Part shown: positions 3,591 through 63,940 of the stretch, piece after piece
How positions within the stretch are numbered: the first letter of the stretch is position 1
How the letters are laid out: each line of letters starts with the position of its first letter
Source of the DNA: an uncultured SAR86 cluster bacterium
Lineage (GTDB): Bacteria > Pseudomonadota > Gammaproteobacteria > Magnimaribacterales > D2472
Direction: 5' to 3'
Assembly: GCA_902525635.1 (NCBI GenBank)
Contig: CABZHV010000003.1
Span: 9,538 to 73,537, forward strand
Length of the DNA stretch: 64,000 bases
Translations under genes and position numbers: made by a program
The notes under the pieces: model-generated
Databases searched by the model: none
What the model was told of the DNA's origin: nothing
The model's input: the letters and a program-made list of their open reading frames with translations, nothing else

Positions 3591-4568
<978 letters not shown>

Positions 4569-7194: not shown

Positions 7195-7533
7195 ATGAAA
7201 TTAGTCAGTGCCATTATCAAACCTTTTAAACTTCAAGAAGTTAGAGAGTCTTTGGTTGGTGCTGGCATTGAAGGCCTTACAATCACGGAAGTGAAAGGTT
7301 ACGGAAGACAAAAAGGACATACGGAGATGTATAGAGGCGCAGAATATTCTGTAGATACCTTACCGAAAATGAGATTAGATATTCTAGTTATTGATGACAA
7401 TCTTGAAACTGTAAAGGATGTGATTCTAAAGTCAGCTGCTACAGGAAAAATTGGTGACGGTAAGATATTTGTAACTACCATCGATGATGTTATTAGGATT
7501 AGAACTGGAGAAACTGGTTCTGACGCTATTTAA
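7195..7533 (+). CDS. glnK: nitrogen regulatory protein P-II
   Basis: 112 aa. T-loop [17 protein letters not shown]. Immediately upstream of amtB. Confidence 0.95.
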
Positions 7534-7554
7534 ATATTTAAAGGAGAGAAAAAA

Positions 7555-8814
7555 ATGGAAGAAATTAAATTTGCATTAGATACATTCTATGCAGTAATGG
7601 CTGGTGCCCTCGTTATGTGGATGGCAGCAGGATTTACAATGCTTGAAGCAGGAATGGTTCAAAAGAAAGATGTATCTGAAATTGTTACTAAAAACCTAGG
7701 ACTATATTCAATTGCATGTATTATGTATTTGGTCTGTGGTTTTGCACTTATGTATGCTGGAGATGACCGCCTTGGATTATTCCCTCAATTCGGAAGTTCA
7801 TTGGGATTATCAATGGCCACAGAAGCCGATCCTATGATGTATGGTTCTGACGGTTCAGTAGAAGGTGGTGATTTTGTTGGGTACTATTCTCATCAAGCTG
7901 ACTTCTTTTTCCAAGTAGTTTTTGTTGCTACTGCAATGTCAATAGTATCAGGAGCTGTTGCTGGAAGAATGAAGATGTTACCTTTCTTTTTATTCGCAGT
8001 TGTTCTAACTGGTTTTATTTATCCAACTCAAGGATATTGGAACTGGGGCGGTGGTTTTGAAGGACTAGGAATTGCATACTCAGACTATGCTGGCTCTGGT
8101 ACAGTTCATCTATGTGGTGCTGCTGCAGCGATGGCGGTTGTGACTGTGCTAGGACCTAGAAATGGTAAATATGCATATGACGGCACACCAAATCCAATGC
8201 CAGGGTCAAATATTCCAATGGCCGCATTAGGTGCATGGATTTTATGGTTAGGTTGGTTTGGATTTAACGGTGGCTCTGAGCTTAAAGTTTCTGAAGTAAG
8301 CAGTGCTACTGCAGTTAGCCAAGTATTTCTAAATACTAATATGGCTGCAGCTGGTGGAGTTTTAGCGGCAATGTTAATGAGTTTATTCATGACAGGTAAA
8401 ATGGATGTAACAATGGCGATTAATGGAGCTATTGCAGGGTTGGTATCAATTACTGCTGATCCATTAAGTCCTGCTGGTGGTATGGCTGTTTTAGTTGGTG
8501 CTATAGGTGGAATTATAGTCTACTTCTCAATTGTGTTTCTTGAAAAAGCAGGTGTGGATGATCCTGTAGGTGCAATTTCTGCTCATGGAACAGTTGGTAT
8601 TTATGGTGTTCTTGTAGTTGCATTAACTGGTGGTGCGTCATTTATGGGGCAACTTACTGGTGTAGTTATGATTGCTGGATTTACATATTTAGCAAGCCTA
8701 GCAACTATTTATGTTATTAATTTGGCAATGCCAATTAGAGCATCTGATGCTGAACAAGAAGCTGGTCTCGATGTCTCTGAGGTAGGTATAGAAGCTTATC
8801 CAGAGTTTAAATAA
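7555..8814 (+). CDS. amtB: ammonium transporter
   Basis: 419 aa polytopic protein. DYAGSGTVHLCGAAAA and GAISAHGTVGIYG are Amt signature regions. Confidence 0.95.
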   Translation: MEEIKFALDTFYAVMAGALVMWMAAGFTMLEAGMVQKKDVSEIVTKNLGLYSIACIMYLVCGFALMYAGDDRLGLFPQFGSSLGLSMATEADPMMYGSDGSVEGGDFVGYYSHQADFFFQVVFVATAMSIVSGAVAGRMKMLPFFLFAVVLTGFIYPTQGYWNWGGGFEGLGIAYSDYAGSGTVHLCGAAAAMAVVTVLGPRNGKYAYDGTPNPMPGSNIPMAALGAWILWLGWFGFNGGSELKVSEVSSATAVSQVFLNTNMAAAGGVLAAMLMSLFMTGKMDVTMAINGAIAGLVSITADPLSPAGGMAVLVGAIGGIIVYFSIVFLEKAGVDDPVGAISAHGTVGIYGVLVVALTGGASFMGQLTGVVMIAGFTYLASLATIYVINLAMPIRASDAEQEAGLDVSEVGIEAYPEFK

Positions 8815-8873
8815 TTTAATAATGATGACTGTCATAGTGCTCCCCCAATAACTAAGTCAGAATATTAAATTTT

Positions 8874-8911
8874 AGAGAAGAGTTACGAAAGTAGCTCTTC
8901 TCTTTTTTTTT
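8874..8911 (+). terminator. intrinsic terminator after amtB
   Basis: AGAGAAGAGTTAC-GAAA-GTAGCTCTTCTCT hairpin with a GNRA loop, followed by a run of T. Confidence 0.8.
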
Positions 8912-10022
8912 ATTTAGCTATTGTTGGATTGCTGTATTGATTAAGTAAGTATGGTTCCATCTCTTCAGGTATCTGCTTCAGTCTACCACTTAGATATTCA
9001 ATAGATTCATTTATTTTAGATGGTTCGAAATTATTTTTGTTCAATTTTCCTTGCATTATTGCAGCTGCATAATTGGTTGTTTGTAATTTATAGGAATCTT
9101 TTATCGCTTTAGTAATCTGATTGGAACAATATTCATATGAGTCTTCGTTAAAAATAATTTTTTTCCCAATAGTTAGATTAACATCACCTTTTTGACCAAC
9201 TATTCCTTCAAAAATACTGTTTAAATCCTCTTTCCTATCTTTCTCATAAGATTGACCAAGATCAGTATGAAACAATTCTTGTGCTTTAAGAATATCATTA
9301 GGATCTTTCTCATAAGATATTGCGACTGGAACAACATTTAAATTATTTAAGTACTCATCAATAGTGATTTTTTTTCTGCCATTTAAATGAATCATCTTTA
9401 TGACTGAAGGATCTGTGAAGTCATTACCATCTTTTGATCTTCCTTGTTTTTGAGCAATCCAAATGGATTCATTTTTATTTTTAATTGCATTAAAAATAAA
9501 TTCTGAAGCGAGATTTAAACTTTTATATATGTCTCTCTTTGATTTGTCACTTCTATCAATAATAAAACTTTTATTTAATCTCATTAGATCAGACGCCCAT
9601 TTCTCGCTCAATAAATTATTGCCGACGGCGTTATAGGTGGTTTTAAATTTATTTTGATGAAGAACTAAGTTTAACAATGCCGAATCAAGAGTGATGTCTC
9701 TATGATTAGAGATGAATAAATATCCTTTATCTTTATCTAAGTTTTCAATTCCTGAAACAGTAAACATGTTAATTGAATTTTTAACAACTTTTGAAACAAT
9801 AGACTCAAATTCATTTTGGTAATCAGCTACATTTTTGATTTTTTTAATTCTATTTTTTAAAAAAATACTTAAAATTTTTCTAGAAAATGGAAGGAATCTC
9901 AACCGATTAAATCCTCCACTAGATAATAGCATTTTTAAAAATCTTCTATTATCAGATAGCTCTGTTAGCACTTGACTGACTTCACTATCGAAATACGGTC
10001 GTATAGAATCGAACTTTTTCAC
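8910..10022 (-). CDS. phospholipid/glycerol acyltransferase family protein
   Basis: H(X)4D acyltransferase motif NHRDITLD. 370 aa. Confidence 0.6.
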   Translation of the reverse strand: MKKFDSIRPYFDSEVSQVLTELSDNRRFLKMLLSSGGFNRLRFLPFSRKILSIFLKNRIKKIKNVADYQNEFESIVSKVVKNSINMFTVSGIENLDKDKGYLFISNHRDITLDSALLNLVLHQNKFKTTYNAVGNNLLSEKWASDLMRLNKSFIIDRSDKSKRDIYKSLNLASEFIFNAIKNKNESIWIAQKQGRSKDGNDFTDPSVIKMIHLNGRKKITIDEYLNNLNVVPVAISYEKDPNDILKAQELFHTDLGQSYEKDRKEDLNSIFEGIVGQKGDVNLTIGKKIIFNEDSYEYCSNQITKAIKDSYKLQTTNYAAAIMQGKLNKNNFEPSKINESIEYLSGRLKQIPEEMEPYLLNQYSNPTIAK

Positions 10023-12426: not shown

Positions 12427-12764
12427 CCAGGCGGCCAGTTTAATGCCCTTCCAGATAACAAGTGTATATGTAGGTGAAAAACACTTTGTCCTGCCCTTGC
12501 TCCATTGTTAACCACTAGTCGAAAGGTTTCATCAAGACCTAAATCTTCAGCAACTTTGCCAGCAACAAGCATTAAATGACCCAGGATTTCTTGATCTTCT
12601 ATAGTTGAATCAGATAATTTTGGTATTACTTTTTTGGGAATTATTAATAAATGTGTTGGTGCCTGAGGATTAATATCCTTAATGACAAAAGAAATGTCAT
12701 CTTCATACAATATTTCAGATGGTATTTCTTTATTTATTATCTTTTCAAATAATGTAGATGACAT
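12423..12764 (-). CDS. HIT-family nucleotide hydrolase (HinT-like)
   Basis: Histidine triad HLHIHLL. 113 aa. Confidence 0.9.
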   Translation of the reverse strand: MSSTLFEKIINKEIPSEILYEDDISFVIKDINPQAPTHLLIIPKKVIPKLSDSTIEDQEILGHLMLVAGKVAEDLGLDETFRLVVNNGARAGQSVFHLHIHLLSGRALNWPPG

Positions 12765-12770
12765 AGAAGA

Positions 12771-12959
12771 CTAGAAAAAATTCCTAAAAAATCTAAAACC
12801 AATATAAAAAATTGCTGCTGTCATTATGATTGCCAACAACACTATCAGTAAATCTCTTAGAGTTTGCAGAAATCTGCCTTGCCTGCTCGCTTTGATTAAT
12901 TGGAAAAGTAAAAATAAAACTGCTATTGAGCTGACTACTAATATAAACATACTTAACAT
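12771..12959 (-). CDS. small 2-TM membrane protein (hypothetical)
   Basis: 62 aa with two hydrophobic helices. Tightly packed between the DedA and HIT genes. Confidence 0.4.
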   Translation of the reverse strand: MLSMFILVVSSIAVLFLLFQLIKASRQGRFLQTLRDLLIVLLAIIMTAAIFYIGFRFFRNFF

Positions 12960-12963
12960 AATT

Positions 12964-13467
12964 TTATCCTAATAATGAACCAACACCTGTTACAAGTAAT
13001 GCTAGAGCAGTTCCCCAACATGCACATGCTATAACGTCTGCAATATAAAATCTTACAGCTTTTAGATCAGAAATTCCAAGTAAAAATGGAACTATTGGTC
13101 TAATTGCAGGCACAAACCTTCCTAAGATTACTGTATAAGAACCAGTTTTCTCTAAAAAATTTTGAGCTCTTTTAATAGTCTTTTCTCTTTTCATCATAAA
13201 TTTTGATGCTAGTAGACTTGGTCCAACCGTTTTTCCAAAAAAGAAACCAGATACATCACCAAGGTGGGCACCTAACATTGCTATTAGTACAATTGAATAC
13301 AACGGCAGGAGTTCCATATTAAATACAAATATACAAACCGAAAATAAAATTGCACTTGAAACAATAATTCCAGAAAGTATAAAGGACTCCATAAATGCAA
13401 ACATAAATATAGCTATCCAAGCTAATTCATTATTGTTACTTAAAAAAGATTCAATATTTTCAAACAT
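12964..13467 (-). CDS. DedA/SNARE-associated family membrane protein
   Basis: LGRFVPAIRPIVPFLLG motif. 167 aa. Confidence 0.8.
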   Translation of the reverse strand: MFENIESFLSNNNELAWIAIFMFAFMESFILSGIIVSSAILFSVCIFVFNMELLPLYSIVLIAMLGAHLGDVSGFFFGKTVGPSLLASKFMMKREKTIKRAQNFLEKTGSYTVILGRFVPAIRPIVPFLLGISDLKAVRFYIADVIACACWGTALALLVTGVGSLLG

Positions 13468-13531
13468 AAGATTTTTAAAATGATATTTTACTTCAATATA
13501 TTTAAGGTGTGATATAAATTAAACTAAATAA

Positions 13532-14662
13532 TTGCATATGAAAAATATAGAAGAATTTATAGTTAAGGTATCAGAAAAAGATATTGATTTACTAAATAAA
13601 AAGATCGATCTAATAAGATGGCCTGATGAAATAAATCATAAATGGTCTCATGGAACGGATCTTAACTTCTTAAAAGAACTAACAAACTATTGGAGGAATG
13701 AATTTAATTGGCGAGATCATGAAAAGAAGATTAATGACATTGGTAGCTACAAATATAAAACTAAGTCCGGACTTAAGCTTCATTTACTTCATTCAAAGTC
13801 AAACAACAATAATGCTATTCCATTAGTAATGACTCATGGATGGCCCGGAAGCATCCAGGAATTTTTAAAAATAATTCCAATCATTCAAAAAAACTCTGAT
13901 ATACCAATTGATATTATTTGCCCTTCTCTGCCAGGATTTGGATTTTCCGATAAACCAAAAGAGGTTGGTATGGATTCCAAACAGATTGCTATTTTGCAGC
14001 ATGAGCTCTTAATAGCTCTTGGATATGATAAATATATTGTTCAAGGTGGTGACTGGGGAGCTACCATAAGCAAATGGATGGCTGAACTTTATCCAGATCA
14101 TTGTATTGGCATTCATCTTAATATGATTATTGCTTGGCCACCTGCTGATAAAGATCCATTAGAAAATACCTCACAAGAAGAACAAAAACTAATGGCAAAT
14201 TATGAAAAATATAAAGAACAAGGAGTTGGATACTATGAGATACAAAAAACAAAACCACAAACACTTGGTTATGGCTTAAATGACTCTCCTATTGGACTTG
14301 CTGCATGGATTGTAGAGAAGTTTTATGGCTGGTTTGATGGTGAAGAGAATAAACTAGTTGTTTCTAATGATGAAGTTCTGGCAATAGTATCTTTGTATTG
14401 GTTTAGTGAATCAATAACTTCATCAACAAGGTTATATAAAGAAAATGGAGACTTAGGATTTTCTTTTGAGAACATAAAGCAACCTATGGCAGGCGCAGTT
14501 TTTGAAAGAGACTTGATTGCACCTCCAAGAGCATGGGCTGAAGAAATCTATAATGTAGTTCAATGGAATACTCACAAAGGCGGACATTTTGCAGCCTTAG
14601 AGCAACCTGAGTCACTTTCGGTAGATATTATTGATTTTATAAAAAAGTTAAATATTGTTTAA
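13532..14662 (+). CDS. epoxide hydrolase (microsomal EH-like alpha/beta hydrolase)
   Basis: N-terminal EHN-type region, HGWPGS oxyanion motif, GGDWG nucleophile elbow. Confidence 0.85.
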   Translation: MHMKNIEEFIVKVSEKDIDLLNKKIDLIRWPDEINHKWSHGTDLNFLKELTNYWRNEFNWRDHEKKINDIGSYKYKTKSGLKLHLLHSKSNNNNAIPLVMTHGWPGSIQEFLKIIPIIQKNSDIPIDIICPSLPGFGFSDKPKEVGMDSKQIAILQHELLIALGYDKYIVQGGDWGATISKWMAELYPDHCIGIHLNMIIAWPPADKDPLENTSQEEQKLMANYEKYKEQGVGYYEIQKTKPQTLGYGLNDSPIGLAAWIVEKFYGWFDGEENKLVVSNDEVLAIVSLYWFSESITSSTRLYKENGDLGFSFENIKQPMAGAVFERDLIAPPRAWAEEIYNVVQWNTHKGGHFAALEQPESLSVDIIDFIKKLNIV

Positions 14663-53760: not shown

Positions 53761-54540
53761 CTATTCAGAGCCAGAGTAATAAAGCCATTCAATTCTATAT
53801 GTTGATTGAGGTCCACAAGATACATTTTTTCTAAATTCGTCCAAATAGCCATTTTCAATCATCATATTTCTGAATGATGAAGTTGATGAAATTATGTCAC
53901 TTCTCTTTTTTGCACTGTAATAATGCCTCATTATTACAAAATCATATTCAATATCTGAATCGAGACCTCTATATGGTGTAAAGTAATGTTCTCCATAACC
54001 AGATCTATTACCTAGCTCAATTTCGCTAGCCTCTACTTTTGCATTAATTTCAAGAAGTTTATCGATACTTCCTCCAGTTTTAAATTTACATTGTCTAAAA
54101 TCAACAAAATTAAACCTATCTCTTTCATCTTCTGGGATTCTTATTCCTCTTGCACGAACACCTCTCATAGAAATACTTCTGCTAGTTTCAACTGCTTCGT
54201 TTTCAAATTCACTATTTTCAGCTGCCCATTGGGGATAATCATTCATATATGCACCCCATTCTTTATACTGCTCTTGACCATTCGGCCACCAACCGTATTC
54301 AATAATATTGTACTCAGTTTCTCCTGCCCAAATTGGAACAAATAATGCTCGACCATATTTTAGATCATTTTCTTCAAGAAATTTGAGGTACTCCATATTT
54401 TGGGCTTTTACATCCTCATATGTTATTCCCTCATTCATATTTCCAAAGAAAAACTCTGCTCTGTATGTATATTGCTCAGATGTTTCAGCAAATATATTGA
54501 TTGTGAAAATAGTTAAAAATAGTATGGAAAGTAATTTCAT
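53761..54540 (-). CDS. secreted protein of unknown function, paralog 1 (two-half, Cys-pair family)
   Basis: Signal peptide. AEFFFGNMNEG start motif, FRQCKFKTGG and NVSCGPQSTYR Cys motifs. 3-nt gap to paralog 2. Confidence 0.75.
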   Translation of the reverse strand: MKLLSILFLTIFTINIFAETSEQYTYRAEFFFGNMNEGITYEDVKAQNMEYLKFLEENDLKYGRALFVPIWAGETEYNIIEYGWWPNGQEQYKEWGAYMNDYPQWAAENSEFENEAVETSRSISMRGVRARGIRIPEDERDRFNFVDFRQCKFKTGGSIDKLLEINAKVEASEIELGNRSGYGEHYFTPYRGLDSDIEYDFVIMRHYYSAKKRSDIISSTSSFRNMMIENGYLDEFRKNVSCGPQSTYRIEWLYYSGSE

Positions 54541-54543
54541 AAC

Positions 54544-55290
54544 TTAATTTTTAACTGGAACAATGCTATATGTTCTTTCATTTTCGCAAACACCACCAAG
54601 ATCAACAAGTGCTTGATATTCTGGCATATCTTCTGCTTGCTCAGACCAAAAATTTGTCCAATTTTTACCATAATCTGCAATTGTAGATGTGGTAACAAGT
54701 TGCACATAGTCATAATCCCAGTCAGAACTTGTGCCCGCGCCAGGGAAAATCATTTTTCTTCCTGCAACATCTCCGAGTTCTTGTGCAGCTTTTGCATATG
54801 CAAAATAAGCTTTGTATACATCTTCTGATGATACATCATCACCCAGTTTGCAATCAGTGTAAACTGCATAACCTGCCTGACCATCTGGAGTTTCAGATAC
54901 AGTTCTTTGCCAGGTATAAATGACTTGGTTTCCACTTTCAAGTATTGTATTTAATTCTGTTTGAAGTTTACCGCCATTGTTAACCCAATAGTCATTACCT
55001 CCATAATGCGCTTCAGGATTTGGACTGATTCCAACCCAAACAAAATCTTGATCTAATTCTCCCGAATGATAATAAGGAATAAGCATTGCGGAACGATAAT
55101 CTTTTAAAGCATCACTTTCTTCAGCCCACTTTGTCCATTTTGCAGCCCACTTCATCATATCATCCATGTCTTTTCCATCCTTAAAAGTACTTACATAATA
55201 TTCAGCTACATTTGGTTCATAATAGTTTTCATGATCATCTGCATAAACCGAAAAACTAAAAACTAGACTTAAAATTAATATTAATTTCAT
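54544..55290 (-). CDS. secreted protein of unknown function, paralog 2
   Basis: Signal peptide ending YADDHE. AEYYVSTFKDGKDMDDM, YTDCKLGDD and GGVCENERTYS motifs. Confidence 0.75.
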   Translation of the reverse strand: MKLILILSLVFSFSVYADDHENYYEPNVAEYYVSTFKDGKDMDDMMKWAAKWTKWAEESDALKDYRSAMLIPYYHSGELDQDFVWVGISPNPEAHYGGNDYWVNNGGKLQTELNTILESGNQVIYTWQRTVSETPDGQAGYAVYTDCKLGDDVSSEDVYKAYFAYAKAAQELGDVAGRKMIFPGAGTSSDWDYDYVQLVTTSTIADYGKNWTNFWSEQAEDMPEYQALVDLGGVCENERTYSIVPVKN

Positions 55291-55306
55291 ATTTCTTCTC
55301 CTCCTT

Positions 55307-56083
55307 TTAGTTGAATGCCGTCATTGACATACCAACAAATGTTCTAGCATTATTGCATGAAAAGCCTTTCAAGTTTGCTGATGCTTCAGAATCAGCTAAA
55401 GATGAGTAATACCTATCAGCATTTATTCCTCTTTCAGAGATTGAAGAGCTGTACATTAATCTTACAAAATCAACTCCGTCAGCTAATTTTCTTCCCGCAT
55501 CTGGAACAATAATTTTTCTACCATTTGTATCACCTTGAGACTGAGCATAAATTGCAAAATCTTTGTACAGGTCGTAAACAGTTCTCAAGTCATAGCCCTC
55601 TTCAAGGGAGCAATCTGCATAAGTAGCATAATTCATATTTCCAGCCTCAAGGCTTGCTGGTTCAGAAATAACCCATTGCCATGCATCAATTGCTTCAGAC
55701 CATCTTGCAGGCAGCGACTCAGCTAATTTAGGGCCTCCATTCAGCATCCACTTTTCCATTCCATTATATTGGGCAGTTGGTGTAGGCCAATTATTAGACC
55801 ACATAACCTCAATTGATTTTAAATCAGAATGGAATACCGGAGTCATTAAAGCTGTAGACATGCTATCAAAAGCTCCGTCTTGAGTACCAGCCCATTCTGC
55901 AAACTTGTTGTACCAAGCAACAAGATCACTCATGTCTTTACCCTTCTTAAATTTACCAATAAAGTATTCAGCTTTATTTGCATCTGGTTCATATTTATAT
56001 TCTGGAGTTTCATGATCGTCTGCATAAATCACAAAACTTATTAATAAACTTAAACTAAATAATAATTTCATAATTCTCTCCAT
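55307..56083 (-). CDS. secreted protein of unknown function, paralog 3
   Basis: Signal peptide ending YADDHE. AEYFIGKFKKGKDMSDL, YADCSLEEG and GFSCNNARTFV motifs. The likely start is the MKLLFSL Met at 56071, preceded by GGAGAG. Confidence 0.75.
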   Translation of the reverse strand: MERIMKLLFSLSLLISFVIYADDHETPEYKYEPDANKAEYFIGKFKKGKDMSDLVAWYNKFAEWAGTQDGAFDSMSTALMTPVFHSDLKSIEVMWSNNWPTPTAQYNGMEKWMLNGGPKLAESLPARWSEAIDAWQWVISEPASLEAGNMNYATYADCSLEEGYDLRTVYDLYKDFAIYAQSQGDTNGRKIIVPDAGRKLADGVDFVRLMYSSSISERGINADRYYSSLADSEASANLKGFSCNNARTFVGMSMTAFN

Positions 56084-56152: not shown

Positions 56153-57103
56153 CTAATTAATGAAGCCATACAAATTGTATTGAGATACAAAATCCCATAT
56201 CTCATTTGAAGCACTTATATTGTGTGAATTGATGTTTGGCCATGTATGATCCATTGTCGGATGTAGAATTAATTTGATATTAACATCGTTTAAACAGTTA
56301 ACATAAGTTTCATACCGAATTAAAGCATAATTGTCATACTTTATAAGAGTGTCAGGTTCTGGATTACAAGAACTATAATTAGACCAGTAATTCATAACAT
56401 CAGATATGCTTTTAGATCCTGAATTTCCATTATAGGGAACAACAAAATCTAATAAACCATGAATCTGTAAAATAGGAGTTGGATGAGATGGTGAACAATT
56501 ATCATACGTGCTAATAGTCATTGAACCAGTGACAGATGCTATTGCAGCAAATTTATCACTTAGATTACATGCTAAGTGATAACCCATATATCCTCCGTTT
56601 GACATTCCAGATGAGTAAATCCTTGATTCATCTATTGGTAATTTATCTTTTAATAAATCAATAACTGTTTCAACAAACTCTAAGTCCTTTACAGTACTCT
56701 TTGATGTCCAGCCACCAACATTCCAATGAGCAGATAACGTTGAGGTCGTCTCTCCTTGCGGGTAAACGACTATAAAATTATTTTCATCTGCAATAGGCAT
56801 GTAATTTGTATAACCAAGATGTCTCAATGCAGATGATCCATAACCATGAAATGCAAACAAAACAGGAATGCTTTGATTTGTATCAAGATTATCAGGAACA
56901 TACAAATAGTAAAATCTGCTCCTATCGTCATGAGTTAAATCACATTTATCTACACCATTTCGAGATGTATTTGTACACGTCTCATTAATAGAATTAAGTT
57001 CATCACCAGGAATACCAGAATTGTCTTCTTCAATAATGTTAGAAGAGCCACCGCTGCATGAAGAAATTATTAATAAGACAACAAAAATATATGTTGTTTT
57101 CAT
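56153..57103 (-). CDS. lipoprotein esterase (PHB-depolymerase/LpqC-type alpha/beta hydrolase)
   Basis: Lipobox IISSC, FHGYGSS oxyanion region, GMSNGG nucleophile elbow. I moved the start to MKTTYIF at 57103 because the track start at 57148 lies inside the upstream terminator hairpin. Confidence 0.75.
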   Translation of the reverse strand: MKTTYIFVVLLIISSCSGGSSNIIEEDNSGIPGDELNSINETCTNTSRNGVDKCDLTHDDRSRFYYLYVPDNLDTNQSIPVLFAFHGYGSSALRHLGYTNYMPIADENNFIVVYPQGETTSTLSAHWNVGGWTSKSTVKDLEFVETVIDLLKDKLPIDESRIYSSGMSNGGYMGYHLACNLSDKFAAIASVTGSMTISTYDNCSPSHPTPILQIHGLLDFVVPYNGNSGSKSISDVMNYWSNYSSCNPEPDTLIKYDNYALIRYETYVNCLNDVNIKLILHPTMDHTWPNINSHNISASNEIWDFVSQYNLYGFIN

Positions 57104-57130: not shown

Positions 57131-57159
57131 GAAAAAAAAAGGGAGCATTTTGCTCCCTT
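57131..57159 (-). terminator. intrinsic terminator
   Basis: AAGGGAGC-aaaat-GCTCCCTT followed by T9 on the minus strand. The stem sequence is the same as in the terminator at 53720-53740. Confidence 0.8.
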
Positions 57160-57178
57160 TAAAACATATATATAATTG

Positions 57179-57883
57179 CTAATTATTATAAGTCTTAACA
57201 GTTGATATTATGGAAATATTTTTGATGTCTCTGTTTCCTTGAACTTCTTTTGAAAATTCAGCAAAAGAGTCACTGGCATATAAGACTTCTGCAGTTTTCA
57301 TAGCCTCTTCAAAGCTTCCGGCACTTGTATAAGCATAGTGTGTGTAATAATTCACACTTCCACTCATTTGAGCTCTTAAACCATAACTACCTGCTACATT
57401 ACCAGATTCTTCTTGTGCTTTTGTAACCTTAGCATAAGCCTTTGCATAAGAAGCAGCGTCTTTTACTTCCATTCTATAAATTGTATATACCTGATTATTC
57501 TCTGGTTCATAATTACCACCATTAATTAATTTCATATTTAATGATTGTTCTATTGGCTCAACAAACTTCGAAGTTTTAGCAAAAAAAGATTGAAACACAG
57601 GATCTGAAAATGATTCAGTTCCTTTGCCAAGGCTTTCAGTATCATCGTAATTTAAAACAACTACATGAGTCGCATCATCATAGCCATTGAAGGCATACTG
57701 GTGCAATGCAACAACTGCAGGAAATGATTTACCCCACTCAGTGCTCATTAATTCATCCATAGCTTCAACATAAGCTGCTGGATTAGAAACTTTTACAGAA
57801 TAGCTAGCAATATAACCGGCTGCGAGCAAAGATTGAGATGAAACAAAAATTGTTAATAAAAAACTAAAGTATAATTTTTTCAT
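57179..57883 (-). CDS. secreted protein of unknown function with two ferredoxin-like-looking halves (no Cys)
   Basis: Signal peptide. The two halves (YIASYSVKVSNPAAYVEAMDEL... and VYTIYRMEVKDAASYAKAYAKV...) show a strand-helix pattern like dimeric alpha/beta-barrel domains. The fold assignment is an inference. Confidence 0.6.
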   Translation of the reverse strand: MKKLYFSFLLTIFVSSQSLLAAGYIASYSVKVSNPAAYVEAMDELMSTEWGKSFPAVVALHQYAFNGYDDATHVVVLNYDDTESLGKGTESFSDPVFQSFFAKTSKFVEPIEQSLNMKLINGGNYEPENNQVYTIYRMEVKDAASYAKAYAKVTKAQEESGNVAGSYGLRAQMSGSVNYYTHYAYTSAGSFEEAMKTAEVLYASDSFAEFSKEVQGNRDIKNISIISTVKTYNN

Positions 57884-58101: not shown

Positions 58102-58581
58102 TTAATTCAATTCAATTTTTTGAATATCATTAAATTTATTAGTGTTATCTCTCTTTGATACTATAAAAAATGAGGGTTCAATATTAAGAGGTAAAGTGAT
58201 TTCTATGTTTGCAGATTTTACAGGGCCGCCCATGTACTCTCTGTCTTCAAAACCTATATGTGTATAATTTGCATAAAATGGATTACCAATACCAATGCTA
58301 TAGAGATATTTTTCATTTTTACCAAAAACTTTGATTGCATAAATATCACTATCATCAACAAATTTAAGTTTCGTTAAACTTCTTTTTTTTTGTTTACCTG
58401 TGTAAGTATTTTTTAAAACAAAATTTTCTTGAGAGCCATTAAAAACATATACGTTACCTGATTCATTGGGATTAACATGTAATTTGAAGATTTTTTTACT
58501 GTCTAAGTCATTACCAAAAACAAGACAAGTTGAAAAAAATAAGACAAAAAGACTTATGTGATATTTTTTTAATAGTTTCAT
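58102..58581 (-). CDS. secreted hypothetical protein
   Basis: Signal peptide MKLLKKYHISLFVLFFSTCLVFG. I chose the start at 58581 because it forms a TAATG stop/start overlap with the upstream gene. The track gives 58596. Confidence 0.55.
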   Translation of the reverse strand: MKLLKKYHISLFVLFFSTCLVFGNDLDSKKIFKLHVNPNESGNVYVFNGSQENFVLKNTYTGKQKKRSLTKLKFVDDSDIYAIKVFGKNEKYLYSIGIGNPFYANYTHIGFEDREYMGGPVKSANIEITLPLNIEPSFFIVSKRDNTNKFNDIQKIELN

Positions 58582-60623
58582 TACCATCTCTCCCAATTAA
58601 TACCCCAAGTTCCTCCCATGGGTCCAACCACATATCCATAATCGTATTGAGTTCTATCTGTTGGATTTCTTCCCCATTGCTCACTCTCATAGTCATACCA
58701 ATAGAAATCTGAATTGAATAACCCTTCATAAAAATCATCAAAGTCTGTTACATCATCGGGGGCGATGACGCTGCCGGTAAGATCATCGACACGCCATGTA
58801 TAAACTTGTACAGAGTTATCAGGTGGTCTATCGAATGCTACATTTGTTTGATTTTCCCTAGAAATATCTTCAACTCCATTAACGTACCATTTTAATTTTA
58901 ATTTTGAAGGGTCATAAGCGACATCAATATCAATTTCAAATGCTGTTCGGGTACTAGTGTTATCTGTTATAAAACCAACTGAATCTCCATCGACAAATCC
59001 CTGATTTTGAATTGATCCAATTGCAAATCCCTCTGCATTCACTTCACCATATTGATCTGTGTTAGTTTGCATTACAGTTAGAAACTTAGGTCTATAATTG
59101 TCAAATTCTCCATAATAATTTCCTTCAAATAAACCAACTTGATTGCATTGAGGATTTCTTCCAGTTCTATTTCCACTTGCATCATAGATATTGTAAAGAC
59201 AGTCACAGGTTGTTGGATCAACATCATCATAGAGCCCAACTGAACCATCAGACCAGTTATAGCAAACCTTAAAAGTACTTCCAGCTACATTAGTTAAATC
59301 ATTTATATGATGTTTCCATTTAACCAAAGATGGATCAGACTGGGTTGTAGTATTTACATTTCTATCAGCATATGCACTTACATCTCTATCATCATCAGAT
59401 ATATATTCGTCTCCCATTCCTCCATGTGCATGGCCAAGTTCGTGCATTAAGACGTAGTCTGTTCTTGTTCCAATGGGTTGTATGTTTGTATTTCCTAAAT
59501 TTACACCCCTACCACTGATAGTTGTAAGAACTGAAATAAGAGTATTATTTGCATACAAGTCATCAAATACTGAGGTATTAATATCGTTAGAACCAATACA
59601 ATAGACATCTTCATCCCAATCATAACAACCGGTTTCAATTGATGCTAATGATGTTCCATCAGGATTGACTGGTTCTGCAACAATGATGTCGAAATATCCT
59701 TGAAAAAAATCAGCAATCTCTGAATCATTTAAGCGGTTAATTGATCTTAAAAGCGCATCTCTAAAATTATCAAGATCGCTTTCTGAACTCCCTGACGAGT
59801 TTTCACTCAAAGAATCTGCAACAAATAAATAATCTGTTCTGCCAAGAGATGAATCACCACCTACAAGGTAATAAACATAATAGTCCTTATTAGTTGTTGA
59901 GCCTGAATCAAATCCATCACTTTTATCATCATCTTGTGCTACTGTTACTACTCTTTTGTTTGCAATTAACCAAGTTGAAAAAGTATCTGATGACGAGGCA
60001 CTTCCATCTGAGACAAAAAGCTCGACCTCAAAATATCCTGCAGTTCTTAAATTAGATAGATCAATTTGTAAATTGCCTAAACCGTCTCCTGTGGTTGTAA
60101 AAATTGCTGGTACCTCATTTTGATTTACCCTTGCTGAGAAAACAAAATTTTCATCTGAACTGTCTACGTCAGAAAAGTAAATTTCAAATATTGGATTACT
60201 CTCAAATATTAAATTATTTTTATCTAAATCTATTTTTGAAGCCATGGTAATTTGAGGGGCATCATTAACAGCAGAAATTTCAATATTTACAGTACTTGTT
60301 TGAGTAACATTTTTTTCAACTGCAGTTACGCTGTAAGTAAACTCATCTTGGCCAAAATAATTACTATTTGGCTGATATCTAATTGACGCATCAGCATTAA
60401 AAACCAAAACTCCATTCGTTGTCGAATTAACTAATGCATATTGAAGAGTAACTGCCTCGTTGGCAGTAGCAGATAATGATCCGCTATAAACTGTATCTTC
60501 ATCAATTGAAATTGAATTAGATGCTAGAGTTATTGCAAATGGTATCTGGGGGGCACCACCTCCACCGCCGCCACCACAAGACGAGATCAAAAATAAAATA
60601 AAAAATAGTTTTGAATATTTCAC
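58581..60623 (-). CDS. surface lipoprotein with cadherin/Ig-like repeat and M64-like zinc metallopeptidase domain
   Basis: Lipobox LISSC plus a poly-Gly linker. The VNDAPQI motif is typical of cadherin-like repeats. MHELGHAHGGMGDEY resembles the Peptidase_M64 HEFGHSFGGLADEY signature. GTG start. Confidence 0.65.
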   Translation of the reverse strand: MKYSKLFFILFLISSCGGGGGGGAPQIPFAITLASNSISIDEDTVYSGSLSATANEAVTLQYALVNSTTNGVLVFNADASIRYQPNSNYFGQDEFTYSVTAVEKNVTQTSTVNIEISAVNDAPQITMASKIDLDKNNLIFESNPIFEIYFSDVDSSDENFVFSARVNQNEVPAIFTTTGDGLGNLQIDLSNLRTAGYFEVELFVSDGSASSSDTFSTWLIANKRVVTVAQDDDKSDGFDSGSTTNKDYYVYYLVGGDSSLGRTDYLFVADSLSENSSGSSESDLDNFRDALLRSINRLNDSEIADFFQGYFDIIVAEPVNPDGTSLASIETGCYDWDEDVYCIGSNDINTSVFDDLYANNTLISVLTTISGRGVNLGNTNIQPIGTRTDYVLMHELGHAHGGMGDEYISDDDRDVSAYADRNVNTTTQSDPSLVKWKHHINDLTNVAGSTFKVCYNWSDGSVGLYDDVDPTTCDCLYNIYDASGNRTGRNPQCNQVGLFEGNYYGEFDNYRPKFLTVMQTNTDQYGEVNAEGFAIGSIQNQGFVDGDSVGFITDNTSTRTAFEIDIDVAYDPSKLKLKWYVNGVEDISRENQTNVAFDRPPDNSVQVYTWRVDDLTGSVIAPDDVTDFDDFYEGLFNSDFYWYDYESEQWGRNPTDRTQYDYGYVVGPMGGTWGINWERW

Positions 60624-60642
60624 GATTTAATTATATCTTAGA

Positions 60643-60670
60643 CAAAAAAAAAGAGGACTAAATGTCCTCT
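60643..60670 (-). terminator. intrinsic terminator after the TonB-dependent receptor gene
   Basis: AGAGGAC-attta-GTCCTCT followed by T9 on the minus strand. Confidence 0.8.
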
Positions 60671-60689
60671 CTTTTTCTATTTTTAATTT

Positions 60690-63600
60690 TTAGAAACTTA
60701 CTCTAAACCCAGCCTTGTAAATTGGTCCATGGTCTTGATATAAGAATGTCATTTCTTCATATCTTGAGTAAAGTTCAACTTCCTCATCTGTAATATTAAT
60801 CGCTTCAAAAAATACCTGTGTATTTTCAGAAACTATGTAAGTAGTTGTAAAGTCTACTTGTGCCCTTTCTACAACATATAAAGGATTATATTGATCACTT
60901 CCAGCATAAGTTTCACCTTTGTAATTATAAGAAATCCTTGTTCTCCATTTATCATCTTCATAAAAAACAGAGAAATTAGCCGCATCACCAAAGCCTGGTA
61001 AAGCAAATTGTTCGCCTAAGGCTGCAGGATCTGCATCAGTATCTCCGCCTACAAAAGTTGCATTAGCAAGAACACCAAAATTGTTATCAAAAAGATGTTG
61101 TATAGCAACCTCGACACCATCCAAGGTTCCATCATATTTATTAACTGGTTGTGCTAGGTTAAAAATGTAAAATGGATCATCAGAATTGCCTATAAATATT
61201 GCATTTCCAGTATTTGGATCAGGAATACAATCTGTAGATCCATTGCATCCAAATGTAAATCCAGTATTTACAAGCCATGCCCAATCGTATGCATTAGACC
61301 AACCACAAGCCCAATATCCTTGAGGTGCGGTCCATTGACAAAGAGCATCATCATTTTCTGGAACAATCAATTCACCTCTTGGACCTCTTGTGACATCTCT
61401 TACACCATTAAAGGGACCACTATTAAGACCAGCACCATGATAATCTTTAATTTCTTTTCTAAAATAATTTAAAGCAAAATAACTGCCTTCAGCATAATAG
61501 TATTCATATGCCATATCAAAATTGACTGATTCATATGGTTGAAGGTTTGGATTACCCGTGCCCAAGGTTAGCGGGTATCTTGGATCAAAAGCTCCAACAC
61601 TTACAGTAGAATCTAATTGCTCAAGGTCAGGTCTTGCAATAGTTTTACTTAATGATGTTCTTACAACGGTATCATCATTTACATCAACTGAAATATTTAT
61701 ATTTGGTAAAAAATAATCAGAATCGCCTATTCCTGTATAAACTGTAGGTTCAGTTATAACACCAACTTTATTTCCATAAACAAATGCACCGAGACTCCAT
61801 GCAGTATTTGTAGGAACTGTAGTGGTAGCTGTTGAAGCTCTTTCTTCATCTTCATACCTCAAACCAATCTGTGCTCTAACGGGCATGCCATTCATTTCAG
61901 TATCGAAATTGAAATTAACAAATATTGAATTTAGTTCTTCAGTTATAATTCCATTTGAATCTCTGCCACCAAAACAACCATCTACAACACCTCGTGTAGT
62001 AGTTCTATTGCCATCATATCCTACATTCGATCCCAAGCCATTTGGATTACCGTCTGCATCAACCGCATCGTTAGCAAGACATTCTGAAGGCCAAGTATAT
62101 GGTGTATTGCTGTTATTCCACCAACTTCCATCTCCTCCAGAAAAATCTCCAACAAAACCAGCAGCTCCAAACCAATATAAAGCATCTTCTTTAGAGATAT
62201 TTAAGTAATAAAATTGAGTTCCAGAGCCTAAATAATCAGGAACATTTACAGTTGTCCATACATCGTCAGGCATAAACGCATAAGTCATCATAATAGGATT
62301 ACCATCAGCAATTTTTCCGTTAATTAATTGATTAAACCATTTTTGATTGTTAAAGGTAGTATCCATCTGAGATACACCAAATTCAATAGATGATAGAGAT
62401 TCCATGAATATTCCATCGTTGTTATCCCATGTACCTATTAATTGCAATTGATTGAGATCACTTTCTCTGTCCTGGTAATTTAAAAAAGCTTGTCTTGGAC
62501 CCATATCACTTCCATCAAATTGAGTAACATCTATTGGCGTACCCTGAAAGCTCTTATCCATTGCCCAAGTCAATGCACCAACTTGATTGCTAAAATCAAA
62601 AGATCTTGCTCTTAAGTATCCTGACGCCTCTTGAACAGGCCAGTAACCCCAACCTTGCCAAGCACCATTAGAAAATTGAAGAATATTATTTTGTGTCCCA
62701 CCTGGCGTGCCTTTAAAGCCAGCAGATGAATCGTGGTAATCGAGTGTTAAATTCAAGTTATCGTTTAGTTGAAAATCAAAATTTATACCAATCGATTTAT
62801 TATTATTTGATGAATTACCATATTCAAAATCATTTTGAAAACTATCTCCATCTCCAGGAGCTTCAGATGTAGCACTGATAACTGCTCCTCTCTCGTTAAT
62901 TGTCATCTGAGTGGTATTATATCCAGCAAAATAAGAACCTGTTGTAATTCCAGTGAAATCAAAACTTGTGCTTGATACGGTGTAATCAAGAGTCATTACC
63001 AAGCCGTTTGACCATTCATATTGAAAAGCACTTTGTAGATTACCTCTTTCACTTTGGTTATCTTTAAACTTGTAAGCAAGTGCTTCTGGATAAAAATAGA
63101 CTCCATCAGCTCTTTGATTAGATGAGGTAATTACTGCACTAGATGGAACGTACCCTCTAACATCACTTGGGAGCCACGTAATTTCGTTTGTTCCCTCCTC
63201 TCTGTTGTTTCTTTCTTGATGAGATCCTGAAATTGAAAAACCCCAACTATTTCCATCTAACTCCCCATTTGTAATGAAGATGAAATCTAATTCAGGGGTA
63301 TAGTCGTCTCCAGTAATATTTTTTGTATGATTATTAAGCCTGAAGCTAACTGCACCACCCTTGTCTGCATTTAAAGGCTTTGCAGTTACCATATTGATTG
63401 TGGATCCCAATCCACCAGTTGGTAAAACAGCATTTGCTGATTTATAAACTTCAACAGCTGCAATACCATGACCAGAAATATCACCAAAATTAAAAGATCT
63501 TCCTCCACCATATTGAGGTGGAACTGTTGGCATTGTTCTGCCGTTAAGTGTAACCATATTAAACTCAGGACCTAAACCTCTCACAGAGACTTTTGTACCT

Positions 63601-63866
63601 TCATCATTTGATCTTTCTGTTGTAACACCCACTAGTCTAGAAAGAGCTTCAGCTAAGTTGCCATCAGGAAATTTTCCCAAGTCTTCTGAAGTAAGTGCGT
63701 CTACAACTCCAACATTGTTTCTTTTTATTTTAATGGCATCTTTTAGACTAGATTTTATTCCAGTAACCACTACTTCTTCTACTTCGTCTTCAGAGTTATC
63801 TTCTTGCGCATTGATAACAACCGAAAAAGACAACACAGCTATCAATGATAATAAGTACTTATTCAC
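60690..63866 (-). CDS. TonB-dependent outer-membrane receptor (large, 1058 aa)
   Basis: Signal peptide, TonB-box-like EEVVVTG, plug region (DALTSEDLGKFPDGNLAEALSRLVGV), C-terminal ...GFRVSF. Confidence 0.9.
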   Translation of the reverse strand: MNKYLLSLIAVLSFSVVINAQEDNSEDEVEEVVVTGIKSSLKDAIKIKRNNVGVVDALTSEDLGKFPDGNLAEALSRLVGVTTERSNDEGTKVSVRGLGPEFNMVTLNGRTMPTVPPQYGGGRSFNFGDISGHGIAAVEVYKSANAVLPTGGLGSTINMVTAKPLNADKGGAVSFRLNNHTKNITGDDYTPELDFIFITNGELDGNSWGFSISGSHQERNNREEGTNEITWLPSDVRGYVPSSAVITSSNQRADGVYFYPEALAYKFKDNQSERGNLQSAFQYEWSNGLVMTLDYTVSSTSFDFTGITTGSYFAGYNTTQMTINERGAVISATSEAPGDGDSFQNDFEYGNSSNNNKSIGINFDFQLNDNLNLTLDYHDSSAGFKGTPGGTQNNILQFSNGAWQGWGYWPVQEASGYLRARSFDFSNQVGALTWAMDKSFQGTPIDVTQFDGSDMGPRQAFLNYQDRESDLNQLQLIGTWDNNDGIFMESLSSIEFGVSQMDTTFNNQKWFNQLINGKIADGNPIMMTYAFMPDDVWTTVNVPDYLGSGTQFYYLNISKEDALYWFGAAGFVGDFSGGDGSWWNNSNTPYTWPSECLANDAVDADGNPNGLGSNVGYDGNRTTTRGVVDGCFGGRDSNGIITEELNSIFVNFNFDTEMNGMPVRAQIGLRYEDEERASTATTTVPTNTAWSLGAFVYGNKVGVITEPTVYTGIGDSDYFLPNINISVDVNDDTVVRTSLSKTIARPDLEQLDSTVSVGAFDPRYPLTLGTGNPNLQPYESVNFDMAYEYYYAEGSYFALNYFRKEIKDYHGAGLNSGPFNGVRDVTRGPRGELIVPENDDALCQWTAPQGYWACGWSNAYDWAWLVNTGFTFGCNGSTDCIPDPNTGNAIFIGNSDDPFYIFNLAQPVNKYDGTLDGVEVAIQHLFDNNFGVLANATFVGGDTDADPAALGEQFALPGFGDAANFSVFYEDDKWRTRISYNYKGETYAGSDQYNPLYVVERAQVDFTTTYIVSENTQVFFEAINITDEEVELYSRYEEMTFLYQDHGPIYKAGFRVSF

Positions 63867-63922
63867 GATTACCCCCTAGGTATTTGTAATATATGTGTAA
63901 TTTGTTAATTCATTAGACTTTT

Positions 63923-63940
63923 TTGACATATTAATGTCAA
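63923..63940. promoter_or_regulatory. perfect 18-bp palindrome (candidate operator) overlapping a -35-like hexamer upstream of the TBDR gene
   Basis: TTGACAT-ATTA-ATGTCAA lies about 57-74 nt upstream of the receptor start codon. TTGACA reads on both strands. Confidence 0.4.

Follow-up and report, generated by a model that had tools for sequence, protein, structure and literature searches.

The question raised by the locus studied here is whether a TonB-dependent receptor (TBDR), a lipoprotein with a metallopeptidase-like motif and a small secreted protein, encoded next to each other in a genome of SAR86, an abundant ocean bacterium, serve a common function, and on which substrate they would act. 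The window, i.e., the whole stretch of DNA analyzed, comprises 64,000 nt of a SAR86 cluster (Magnimaribacterales) genome (contig CABZHV010000003.1 of assembly GCA_902525635.1, positions 9,538-73,537 of the forward strand), with a G+C content of about 31%. The minus strand carries every gene of the locus, and all coordinates given below refer to the minus strand of the window unless stated otherwise. Every feature named in the preliminary description was confirmed at its given position. Related loci were collected by scanning one genome per species, from which 79 loci were kept, and five further loci were added by exact protein match, yielding 84 loci (L001-L084). The preliminary description had placed the locus in a gammaproteobacterial background, and this was borne out, since the 79 scanned loci originated from SAR86 or unclassified Gammaproteobacteria metagenome-assembled genomes (MAGs), except for two contigs of one MAG labelled Hyphomicrobiales, a label that is probably a binning error. 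Among the loci found, the M64 family of this lipoprotein was restricted to SAR86, with two copies in several genomes, which is new here. The answer proposed, to which about an even chance is given, is that the lipoprotein and the small protein form a two-part, outer-membrane-anchored M64 zinc peptidase that would process polypeptides in conjunction with TBDR uptake and would supply the cell with short peptides.

The lipoprotein gene (58581-60623; 680 aa; GTG start) was characterized by Pfam searches, AlphaFold2 models and Foldseek. The N-terminus of the protein, MKYSKLFFILFLISSC, has the lipobox LISSC16 and is followed by a linker of seven glycines (GGGGGGG). Two immunoglobulin (Ig)-like domains (residues ~28-225), an M64 domain (~226-545) and a beta-sandwich (~546-680) follow. 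The first Ig-like domain matched Big_9 with 40.3 bits (threshold 23.6; residues 34-114), the sequence V119-N-D-A-P123 being counted within the domain, while Cadherin_4 and Cadherin_5 remained marginally under threshold. Thus, the Ig/cadherin-like VNDAP repeat noticed previously was recovered. The proposed metallopeptidase region likewise matched a profile, Peptidase_M64 (PF09471), scoring 39.3 bits (threshold 26; E 5.7e-10; residues 381-532). Of the 302 profile positions, those from 135 to 297 are covered, whereas the N-terminal half remains unmatched. The E-values of the domain matches were far beyond chance, and the Peptidase_M64 match is precomputed for nearly all relatives. A whole-protein search of 1.84 billion representative proteins returned mostly giant Big_9 repeat proteins and seven useful full-length relatives.

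The family M64 is defined by the motif HEXXHXXXGXXD, in which two His and the Asp are zinc ligands and the Glu is catalytic (PMC12402451). In the lipoprotein, this motif is found as H394-ELGHAHGGMGDEY-407 (59403-59444; HEXXHXXXGXXD-EY, i.e., H394-E-L-G-H398-A-H-G-G-M-G-D405-E406-Y407). The residues H394, E395, H398, D405, E406 and Y407 were invariant in alignments of relatives with identities down to 33-36%. G402, the glycine of the published motif, varies among relatives; G401 is conserved. The motif aligned with HEFGHSFGGLADEY of the solved Bacteroides structures 3p1v and 4df9, and the alignment with 3p1v and 4df9/9qdi was colinear over the motif and a second block, VGxxEGxxYxxxxxYRP.

Two AlphaFold2 models were computed. 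The first, covering the full 680 aa with 16 sequences, had a predicted local distance difference test (pLDDT) score below 50 in the catalytic region, and no fold was assigned from it. For the second, residues 226-680 were joined to the mature small protein, and 44 database relatives, including 19 fused forms (see below), were used; this model reached a mean pLDDT of 71.8 and a predicted template modeling (pTM) score of 0.67. When it was compared with the PDB by Foldseek, ranks 1-15 were all M64 peptidases (probability 1.00; E 1e-6 to 6e-5), namely the immunoglobulin A (IgA) peptidase of Thomasclavelia ramosa and BF3526 of Bacteroides fragilis, followed by far weaker matches to generic fibronectin-type sandwiches. 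In the model, the lipoprotein has the M64 catalytic fold. In addition, NCBI annotation calls some relatives 'M64 family metallopeptidase'. Because of the Pfam match, the invariant motif, the 15 top-ranking Foldseek matches and the names given to relatives, the lipoprotein is assigned to M64 as a divergent member and predicted peptidase.

The IgA peptidase ThomasA/IgAse (PDB 9qdh, 9i4z, 9qa6, 9ekk) and BF3526 (4df9, 9qdi) were the only confident structural matches of the SAR86 protein, and HEXXHXXXGXXD followed by E-Y is common to all three. As in ThomasA, beta-sandwich domains follow the catalytic domain, and BF3526 was deposited as 'Lipoprotein', like the SAR86 protein. The cysteine cluster C454, C473, C475 and C493 may, by analogy, correspond to the second structural zinc site of ThomasA (Glu and three Cys). 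The differences are considerable: the identity in the structural alignments does not exceed 18%, the SAR86 enzyme carries two Ig-like domains as a stalk at its N-terminus, a separate gene encodes its last beta-sandwich, and its host lives free in the ocean, where there is no IgA to cleave. Moreover, the SAR86 gene adjoins a TBDR gene, whereas BF3526 and its homologues in the Bacteroidales-rich cluster CL-I are reported to lie outside polysaccharide utilization loci (PULs; PMC12402451). M64 genes beside TBDR genes had been called a Bacteroidetes PUL theme in the preliminary description, a notion that was not confirmed, the latter report covering cluster CL-I.

An entirely different role for the M64 fold would be that of an inactive protease serving as a binding or capture lipoprotein, i.e., as a co-receptor of the TBDR comparable to bipartite receptor pairs. 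The long glycine-rich tether with the Ig-like stalk and the position of the gene next to the TBDR gene would fit such a role. In neisserial surface lipoproteins, for example TbpB, which are partners of TBDRs, glycine-rich tethers likewise follow the lipidated cysteine. However, the invariance of the six motif residues down to 33% identity would be unexpected for a pseudo-enzyme, and the other M64 copy present in several genomes has no TBDR beside it. A pseudo-enzyme was rejected because of the invariant catalytic residues, and a co-receptor of this kind is considered very improbable.

The small secreted protein (58102-58587) comprises 159 aa if translated from ATG 58581; a further in-frame ATG at 58587 would extend it to 161 aa. 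It is predicted to have a type I signal peptide and a beta-sandwich fold. As described previously, it is coupled to the lipoprotein gene by a TAATG overlap of stop and start codons (tgg taa tga aac), the junction reading ATGGTAATG. The ATG at 58587 is the start retained in most relatives, as '..G[EK]MV..'. The preliminary description had listed it as a secreted protein in its own right, and the comparison with relatives led to another view. Relatives of the lipoprotein with 807-946 aa instead of about 680 aa possess about 140 additional C-terminal residues that align with the small protein; in BLASTP searches of the small protein against these C-termini, E-values of 4e-19 (P0137), 3e-13 (P0175), 1e-11 (P0166) and 3e-6 (P0131) were obtained. 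Of the 84 loci, 76 had matches to both genes, and in each of these, small-protein sequence followed the M64 gene; the rest were short or fragmented contigs. In 23 of the 76, it was fused to the M64 gene as one continuous open reading frame (ORF) of 789-894 aa. In the other 53, it was split off and overlapped the M64 stop codon or lay a few nucleotides from it, except in the frameshifted locus L039. Split-form small proteins always have their own type I signal peptide and no lipobox, and the large protein always carries S/A-C-GGGGGG. Two loci, L079 and L080, have the fused form inside the gene neighborhood typical of the window, and therefore the split arose within this locus lineage. Thus, the sequence comparison indicates that the M64 enzyme's C-terminal beta-sandwich domain has become detached and persists as the small protein, rather than the latter being an accessory factor of independent origin. 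The resulting architecture is unusual for M64: the lipobox is followed by the pair of Ig-like domains and the catalytic domain, and then by two beta-sandwiches, the second of which exists in a fused and a split form.

The small domain diverges faster than the catalytic part, with about 56% identity where the latter has 83%, and about 27% where it has 55%. Nevertheless, D79, G97, P101, F102 and H108 (GIGNPF...HIG[YF]ED) were kept without exception. The second AlphaFold2 model shows the domain as a beta-sandwich; no Pfam family was matched, and a profile search of the protein database with the small domain returned only orphan proteins of about 155 aa and no other architectures. In the two fused loci of the window-type neighborhood, a His-rich insertion was observed directly after the HIGY motif (HHHAKIDHEH in L079, 12188-12592; HNHDHHHDK in L080, 12164-12568), which hints at a small-domain loop near a metal. 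One of the beta-sandwiches behind the catalytic domain of ThomasA supplies a loop to its active-site region (PMC12402451). Because of this, a role of the small domain in substrate recognition or gating is, by analogy, plausible. The overlapping stop and start codons of the pair suggest translational coupling, and since the start of the small gene overlaps the stop of the large gene, both subunits are probably made in matched amounts.

The TBDR gene (60690-63866) encodes the 1058-aa receptor expected at this place, with a signal peptide, the TonB-box-like sequence EEVVVTG, a plug domain and a barrel of the 22-strand type. Pfam matches to Plug (E 6e-15) and TonB_dep_Rec_b-barrel (E 6e-12) were obtained, and the sole strong NCBIfam model was TIGR01782 (TonB-Xanth-Caul; 467 bits, cutoff 310). 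The gene is flanked by conspicuous signals. First, a promoter-like site (63912-63940), whose function is suggested by its conservation, consists of TTGACA (63940-63935), a 17-nt spacer and TCTAAT (63917-63912); position 63940, the boundary chosen in the preliminary description, is the first base of this -35 hexamer. The pattern CTTGACAT-N11-AAAAAGTYTAAT was kept upstream of the TBDR gene in about 35 related loci, with both types of TIGR01782 receptor. Second, the strong Shine-Dalgarno region CCTAGGGGGT (63871-63880), 5 nt before the GTG start, was conserved in nearly all related loci; CTAGGGGG occurs once in the window, namely here. Third, an intrinsic terminator (60643-60677; AGAGGAC-ATTTA-GTCCTCT followed by T9) lies directly after the stop codon. 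The terminator scan also flagged this hairpin, on the plus strand. A GC-rich hairpin with a T-run was found after the TBDR stop codon in 18 of 18 folded spacers of related loci, regardless of the TBDR type. The -35 hexamer lies inside the perfect inverted repeat TTGACAT-TAAT-ATGTCAA (63922-63940), which could be an operator; its right arm is only partly retained in relatives (..TCAAAAAAG).

The M64 gene has a signal of its own. The hexamer TATAAT (60630-60635) ends 6 nt before its GTG start with no Shine-Dalgarno sequence in between, and is a candidate promoter of a leaderless mRNA. Among the 41 syntenic loci with a detected start, TATAAT or TATACT ended at most 12 nt, and mostly exactly 6 nt, from the M64 start in 38, among them the four loci that have no TBDR gene, and no Shine-Dalgarno sequence intervened. 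About 14 loci, including the window, start the M64 gene with GTG. Judging from the position of the hexamer, the M64 mRNA is probably leaderless or nearly so. Across the whole window, an exact TATAAT ended 5-7 nt before the first start codon of 5 of the 51 ORFs of at least 150 aa (starts at 3630 on the plus strand and at 52518, 60623, 39700 and 22615 on the minus strand), compared to about 0.8% expected from base composition. A Shine-Dalgarno-like motif preceded just 8 of these 51 ORFs. In this SAR86 genome, leaderless transcription may be frequent.

From these signals, we read the locus as two putative transcription units, a single-gene TBDR unit and the M64/small pair, which is the only place at the locus where genes overlap. 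A single operon of TBDR, lipoprotein and small protein was rejected because of the terminator and the internal promoter, some read-through being possible; the three genes are probably not one operon.

The proposed mechanism starts from these two units. The first consists of a strongly signalled TonB-Xanth-Caul TBDR gene, and the second encodes a predicted two-part M64 zinc metallopeptidase. The large subunit has a lipobox cysteine as its anchor, a poly-glycine tether, the two-Ig stalk, the M64 domain and a beta-sandwich; the small subunit is the former C-terminal beta-sandwich domain, equipped with a Sec signal peptide of its own. The enzyme would hang from the outer membrane. Tether and stalk would suit either face of this membrane, and the periplasmic face is slightly favored because the partner is a soluble Sec-exported protein; such a partner fits a periplasmic complex at least as well as the surface exposure assumed previously. 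The enzyme would cut polypeptides or peptide-bearing fragments that the neighboring TBDR admits, or would admit, into short peptides, and these would feed the oligopeptide importer of SAR86.

A peptide-related role fits for three reasons. First, the second M64 copy lies near peptidase genes. At least two M64 copies are present in several genomes, e.g., in AG-422-O05 (L014 with 69% and L062 with 39% identity). The second copy type is the fused form and stands alone between clpA/infA and typA (L085/L086, 10001-19376; L087, 10001-21606). A Peptidase_M14 gene (951 aa) is located at a distance of 2.5-3.5 kb from it, and a Peptidase_S10 gene at about 5.3-7.5 kb. Second, BF3526 is a characterized M64 lipoprotein with peptide-trimming activity (PMC12402451). 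Third, SAR86 is reported to lack some amino-acid pathways and to possess an oligopeptide ATP-binding cassette (ABC) importer, one of only two ABC importers (PMC3358033). As a side observation, the second M64 copy and the M14 and S10 genes, all for secreted peptidases, may be loosely clustered.

The link to the TBDR was examined in the syntenic loci. In 48 of 52 such loci, with M64 identities as low as 33%, the gene immediately preceding the M64 gene encodes a TBDR. Together with the small gene following the M64 gene wherever the sequence was readable, this agrees with the co-conservation expected for related genomes. About 17 loci hold an orthologue of the window's TBDR (75-97% identity) in the same position. 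The link is further supported by L084, the deepest syntenic locus with 33% M64 identity, in which the core of patatin, TBDR, M64 and small gene was kept while the following genes differ. The identity of the receptor varied, with at least three non-orthologous TBDR forms. The TIGR01782 replacements share 37-46% identity with the window's receptor, compared to 75-97% for window-type receptors; those in L007, L014, L051 and L079 matched TIGR01782 with 452-506 bits, and the receptor of L084 falls outside TIGR01782. Even loci whose M64 proteins are 73-75% identical to that of the window had a window-type receptor (92%), another TIGR01782 receptor (39-46%) or none (L018). While the coding region varied sharply, the promoter CTTGACAT-N11-AAAAAGTYTAAT, the leader CCTAGGGGGT and the terminator were common to the loci. 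The exchange looks like a cassette-style replacement between conserved flanks.

Several findings weigh against the proposed peptidase-TBDR partnership. At the protein level, the sequence match to the solved enzymes 3p1v and 4df9/9qdi was weak (E ~0.03-0.15 against the PDB), and in the second model the catalytic region reached moderate confidence, with loops at pLDDT below 50. At the locus level, the conserved terminator and the promoter of the M64 gene set the TBDR apart from the peptidase. The TBDR is absent in L018, L024, L025 and L060, where the patatin gene adjoins the M64 gene and the rest of the block is intact, and a different TBDR is present in about 19 loci with M64 genes equally similar to that of the window. 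The second M64 copy has no adjoining TBDR at all. Finally, the flanking genes (patatin, rhodanese and GMC oxidoreductase on one side, esterase and malate synthase G on the other) suggest lipids rather than protein, and a lipid-related interpretation has been given to a SAR86 TBDR locus whose upstream genes form the same set (Dupont et al. 2012, PMC3358033).

The absent and exchanged receptors, the independent transcription suggested by the sequence signals and the TBDR-free second copy would all be expected if adjacency did not reflect functional coupling. The gap between patatin and M64 gene would then be a slot in which TBDRs are gained, swapped and lost, the M64/small pair would be a general envelope peptidase, and its position beside a TBDR would reflect the layout of a streamlined, TBDR-rich genome. 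The 19-33 TBDRs per SAR86 genome (PMC3358033) and the receptor of L084, which is not a TIGR01782 member, are also in line with this explanation. By contrast, a TBDR occupied the exact slot in nearly all syntenic loci despite changing surroundings, and a replaced receptor gave way to another TBDR, which looks like selection for a TBDR at this place. Adjacency without coupling is regarded as rather unlikely. Given the four loci with no TBDR and the about 19 with a different one, the coupling of TBDR and M64 gene is loose; we read the slot as being under selection to hold a TBDR, in a loose partnership with the peptidase.

The neighboring genes raise the question whether lipids are the substrate. 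Genes upstream of the TBDR are known from relatives only, not from the window. In the first copy type, to which the window belongs, the order is amidase, epimerase, steroid-dehydrogenase-like protein, GMC oxidoreductase, rhodanese and patatin, then the core of TBDR, M64 and small gene, and then the 234-aa protein, the esterase lipoprotein, one to three paralogues, a flavin adenine dinucleotide (FAD) monooxygenase and malate synthase G. In the window, the small gene is followed by a gene for a secreted 234-aa protein of an uncharacterized paralogue family (57179-57883), which is present in 27 related loci. A terminator-like hairpin, AAAGGGAGC-AAA-GCTCCCTTT with a T-run (57138-57160), closes the unit of M64, small and 234-aa genes. 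The esterase lipoprotein of the PHB-depolymerase/Esterase_PHB family (56153-57103; ~316 aa) follows, with Pfam matches to Peptidase_S9, Abhydrolase_2 and Esterase; its NCBIfam NF050058 score of 140.6 bits was slightly below the cutoff of 150. The listed esterase ORF (start 57148, 331 aa) overruns the terminator hairpin (57160-57138), and the real start is probably ATG 57103 (MKTTY...LLIISSC), giving about 316 aa as called in L001. Three secreted paralogues of 258, 248 and 259 aa (53761-56083) are followed by a terminator (53741-53719).

Pairwise identities among the four secreted paralogues (234-259 aa) amount to only 15-38%, and zero to four are present per locus among SAR86 species. Neither a Pfam nor a PDB sequence match was obtained for them, and the weak scores for DUF1330 and chlorite dismutase (E > 0.06) are not evidence. 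Each half of these proteins resembles a putative repeat of about 110 aa. In L084, malate synthase G is more distant, and a PhoPQ_related protein, an amidase and an amine oxidase stand where the esterase and paralogues are located elsewhere; the PhoPQ_related protein (PF10142, E 1e-117) occupies positions 12472-13857 of that locus. In L032 (SAR86A scaffold JH611156), the locus occurs a second time in incomplete form (7420-9814). This partial copy, with M64 residues 1-259, small gene and esterase, is inserted between the TBDR gene and the complete copy, and is either a real local duplication or an artefact of the 2012 metagenomic assembly.

Based on such neighbors, the locus could be one for membrane debris or lipids. 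The TBDR would import lipid-derived molecules (sulfolipid, phospholipid or lipopeptide fragments), patatin, esterase and oxidoreductases would lead, and the M64 enzyme would be an accessory hydrolase, one of several in the envelope, trimming the peptide parts of lipoproteins or lipopeptides and not the core of a system for peptide uptake. In favor of this, loci with 97-98% protein identity to the window carry amidase, 3-beta-hydroxysteroid dehydrogenase/epimerase, steroid dehydrogenase-like, GMC oxidoreductase, rhodanese and patatin genes upstream, and the esterase lipoprotein, FAD monooxygenase and malate synthase G are encoded downstream. Patatin adjoins the M64 gene where the TBDR is absent and was retained even in L084. 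The putative sulfolipid locus of Dupont et al. (2012, PMC3358033), a SAR86 TBDR locus with patatin, rhodanese-family protein and flavin oxidoreductase, is, judging from these matching genes, probably the same locus, and a 2024 SAR86 study emphasizes the breakdown of complex lipids in the periplasm. Against this stand three observations. The M64 peptidase itself carries no hint of lipid chemistry, M14 and S10 peptidase genes rather than lipases are found in the vicinity of the other M64 copy, and L084 swaps the genes after the M64 pair and keeps the pair and the TBDR. A lipid locus is thus a possible, if doubtful, explanation. The 2012 paper mentions a peptidase zero times, and therefore is silent on the split domain and the downstream secreted paralogues.

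The comparison with known uptake systems clarified which parts of the PUL-like interpretation given previously can be kept. The analogy to Bacteroidetes PULs proved weak. As in PULs (SusC/SusD, including the peptide importer RagAB), a TonB-dependent transporter gene lies beside genes for lipoprotein or secreted hydrolases, and processing in the envelope would precede uptake. However, no SusD family match was found among the eight proteins encoded between 53761 and 63866, as already noted in the preliminary description, nor among the called genes of L001-L005. The TBDR belongs to TIGR01782, and no SusC/RagA model was matched in the NCBIfam scan at E up to 0.1. In contrast to PULs, there are separate transcription units and no adjoining regulator or sensor gene. 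A true PUL was rejected for lack of SusD and of a SusC-type receptor. A likeness also exists to the carbohydrate utilization loci containing TBDRs (CUT loci) of Xanthomonas and Caulobacter, which were reportedly described by Blanvillain and colleagues in 2007. In these, too, a TonB-Xanth-Caul TBDR is encoded beside degradative enzymes in a proteobacterium without SusD. Unlike in CUT loci, no glycoside hydrolase, inner-membrane transporter or regulator was present among the SAR86 neighbors; peptidase and esterases are found instead. The locus works like a TBDR-centered utilization locus built from known parts and is not a new kind of system.

A bolder extension of the proposed partnership would be that TBDR, M64 enzyme and small subunit form one physical machine at the outer membrane, a SusD-free, proteobacterial counterpart of the Bacteroidota 'utilisome'. 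In such a machine, the invariant small-subunit loop GIGNPF...HIG[YF]ED would extend to the catalytic zinc as a removable lid, latency switch or substrate-capture element, and the TBDR coding region would be swapped as a cassette within its conserved promoter and terminator flanks to retune import. This is considered decidedly unlikely.

The literature search returned no paper that joined Peptidase_M64 with TonB-dependent proteins and none that joined M64 with SAR86. Also new here are the domain fission, a TBDR slot whose occupant varies while its regulatory flanks stay constant, the conserved terminator with a promoter of the leaderless type, and the recognition of a predicted peptidase in a locus earlier read as lipid-related. 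The domain fission represents a natural experiment on the function of the C-terminal beta-sandwich domains in M64 peptidases. SAR86 genome papers have stressed lipids (including PMC3358033), and in one study protein was the expected but unproven target of receptors not tied to carbohydrate enzymes, for which genomic context was seldom informative. The locus provides a concrete case, conserved across SAR86, in which a receptor is paired with a predicted peptidase. Since a cultured SAR86 isolate exists (Magnimaribacter mokuoloeensis HIMB1674), the model is testable. If it fails, the locus would be an ordinary hydrolase cluster; if it is true, the locus would be one stage in the acquisition of amino acids from dissolved protein by SAR86.

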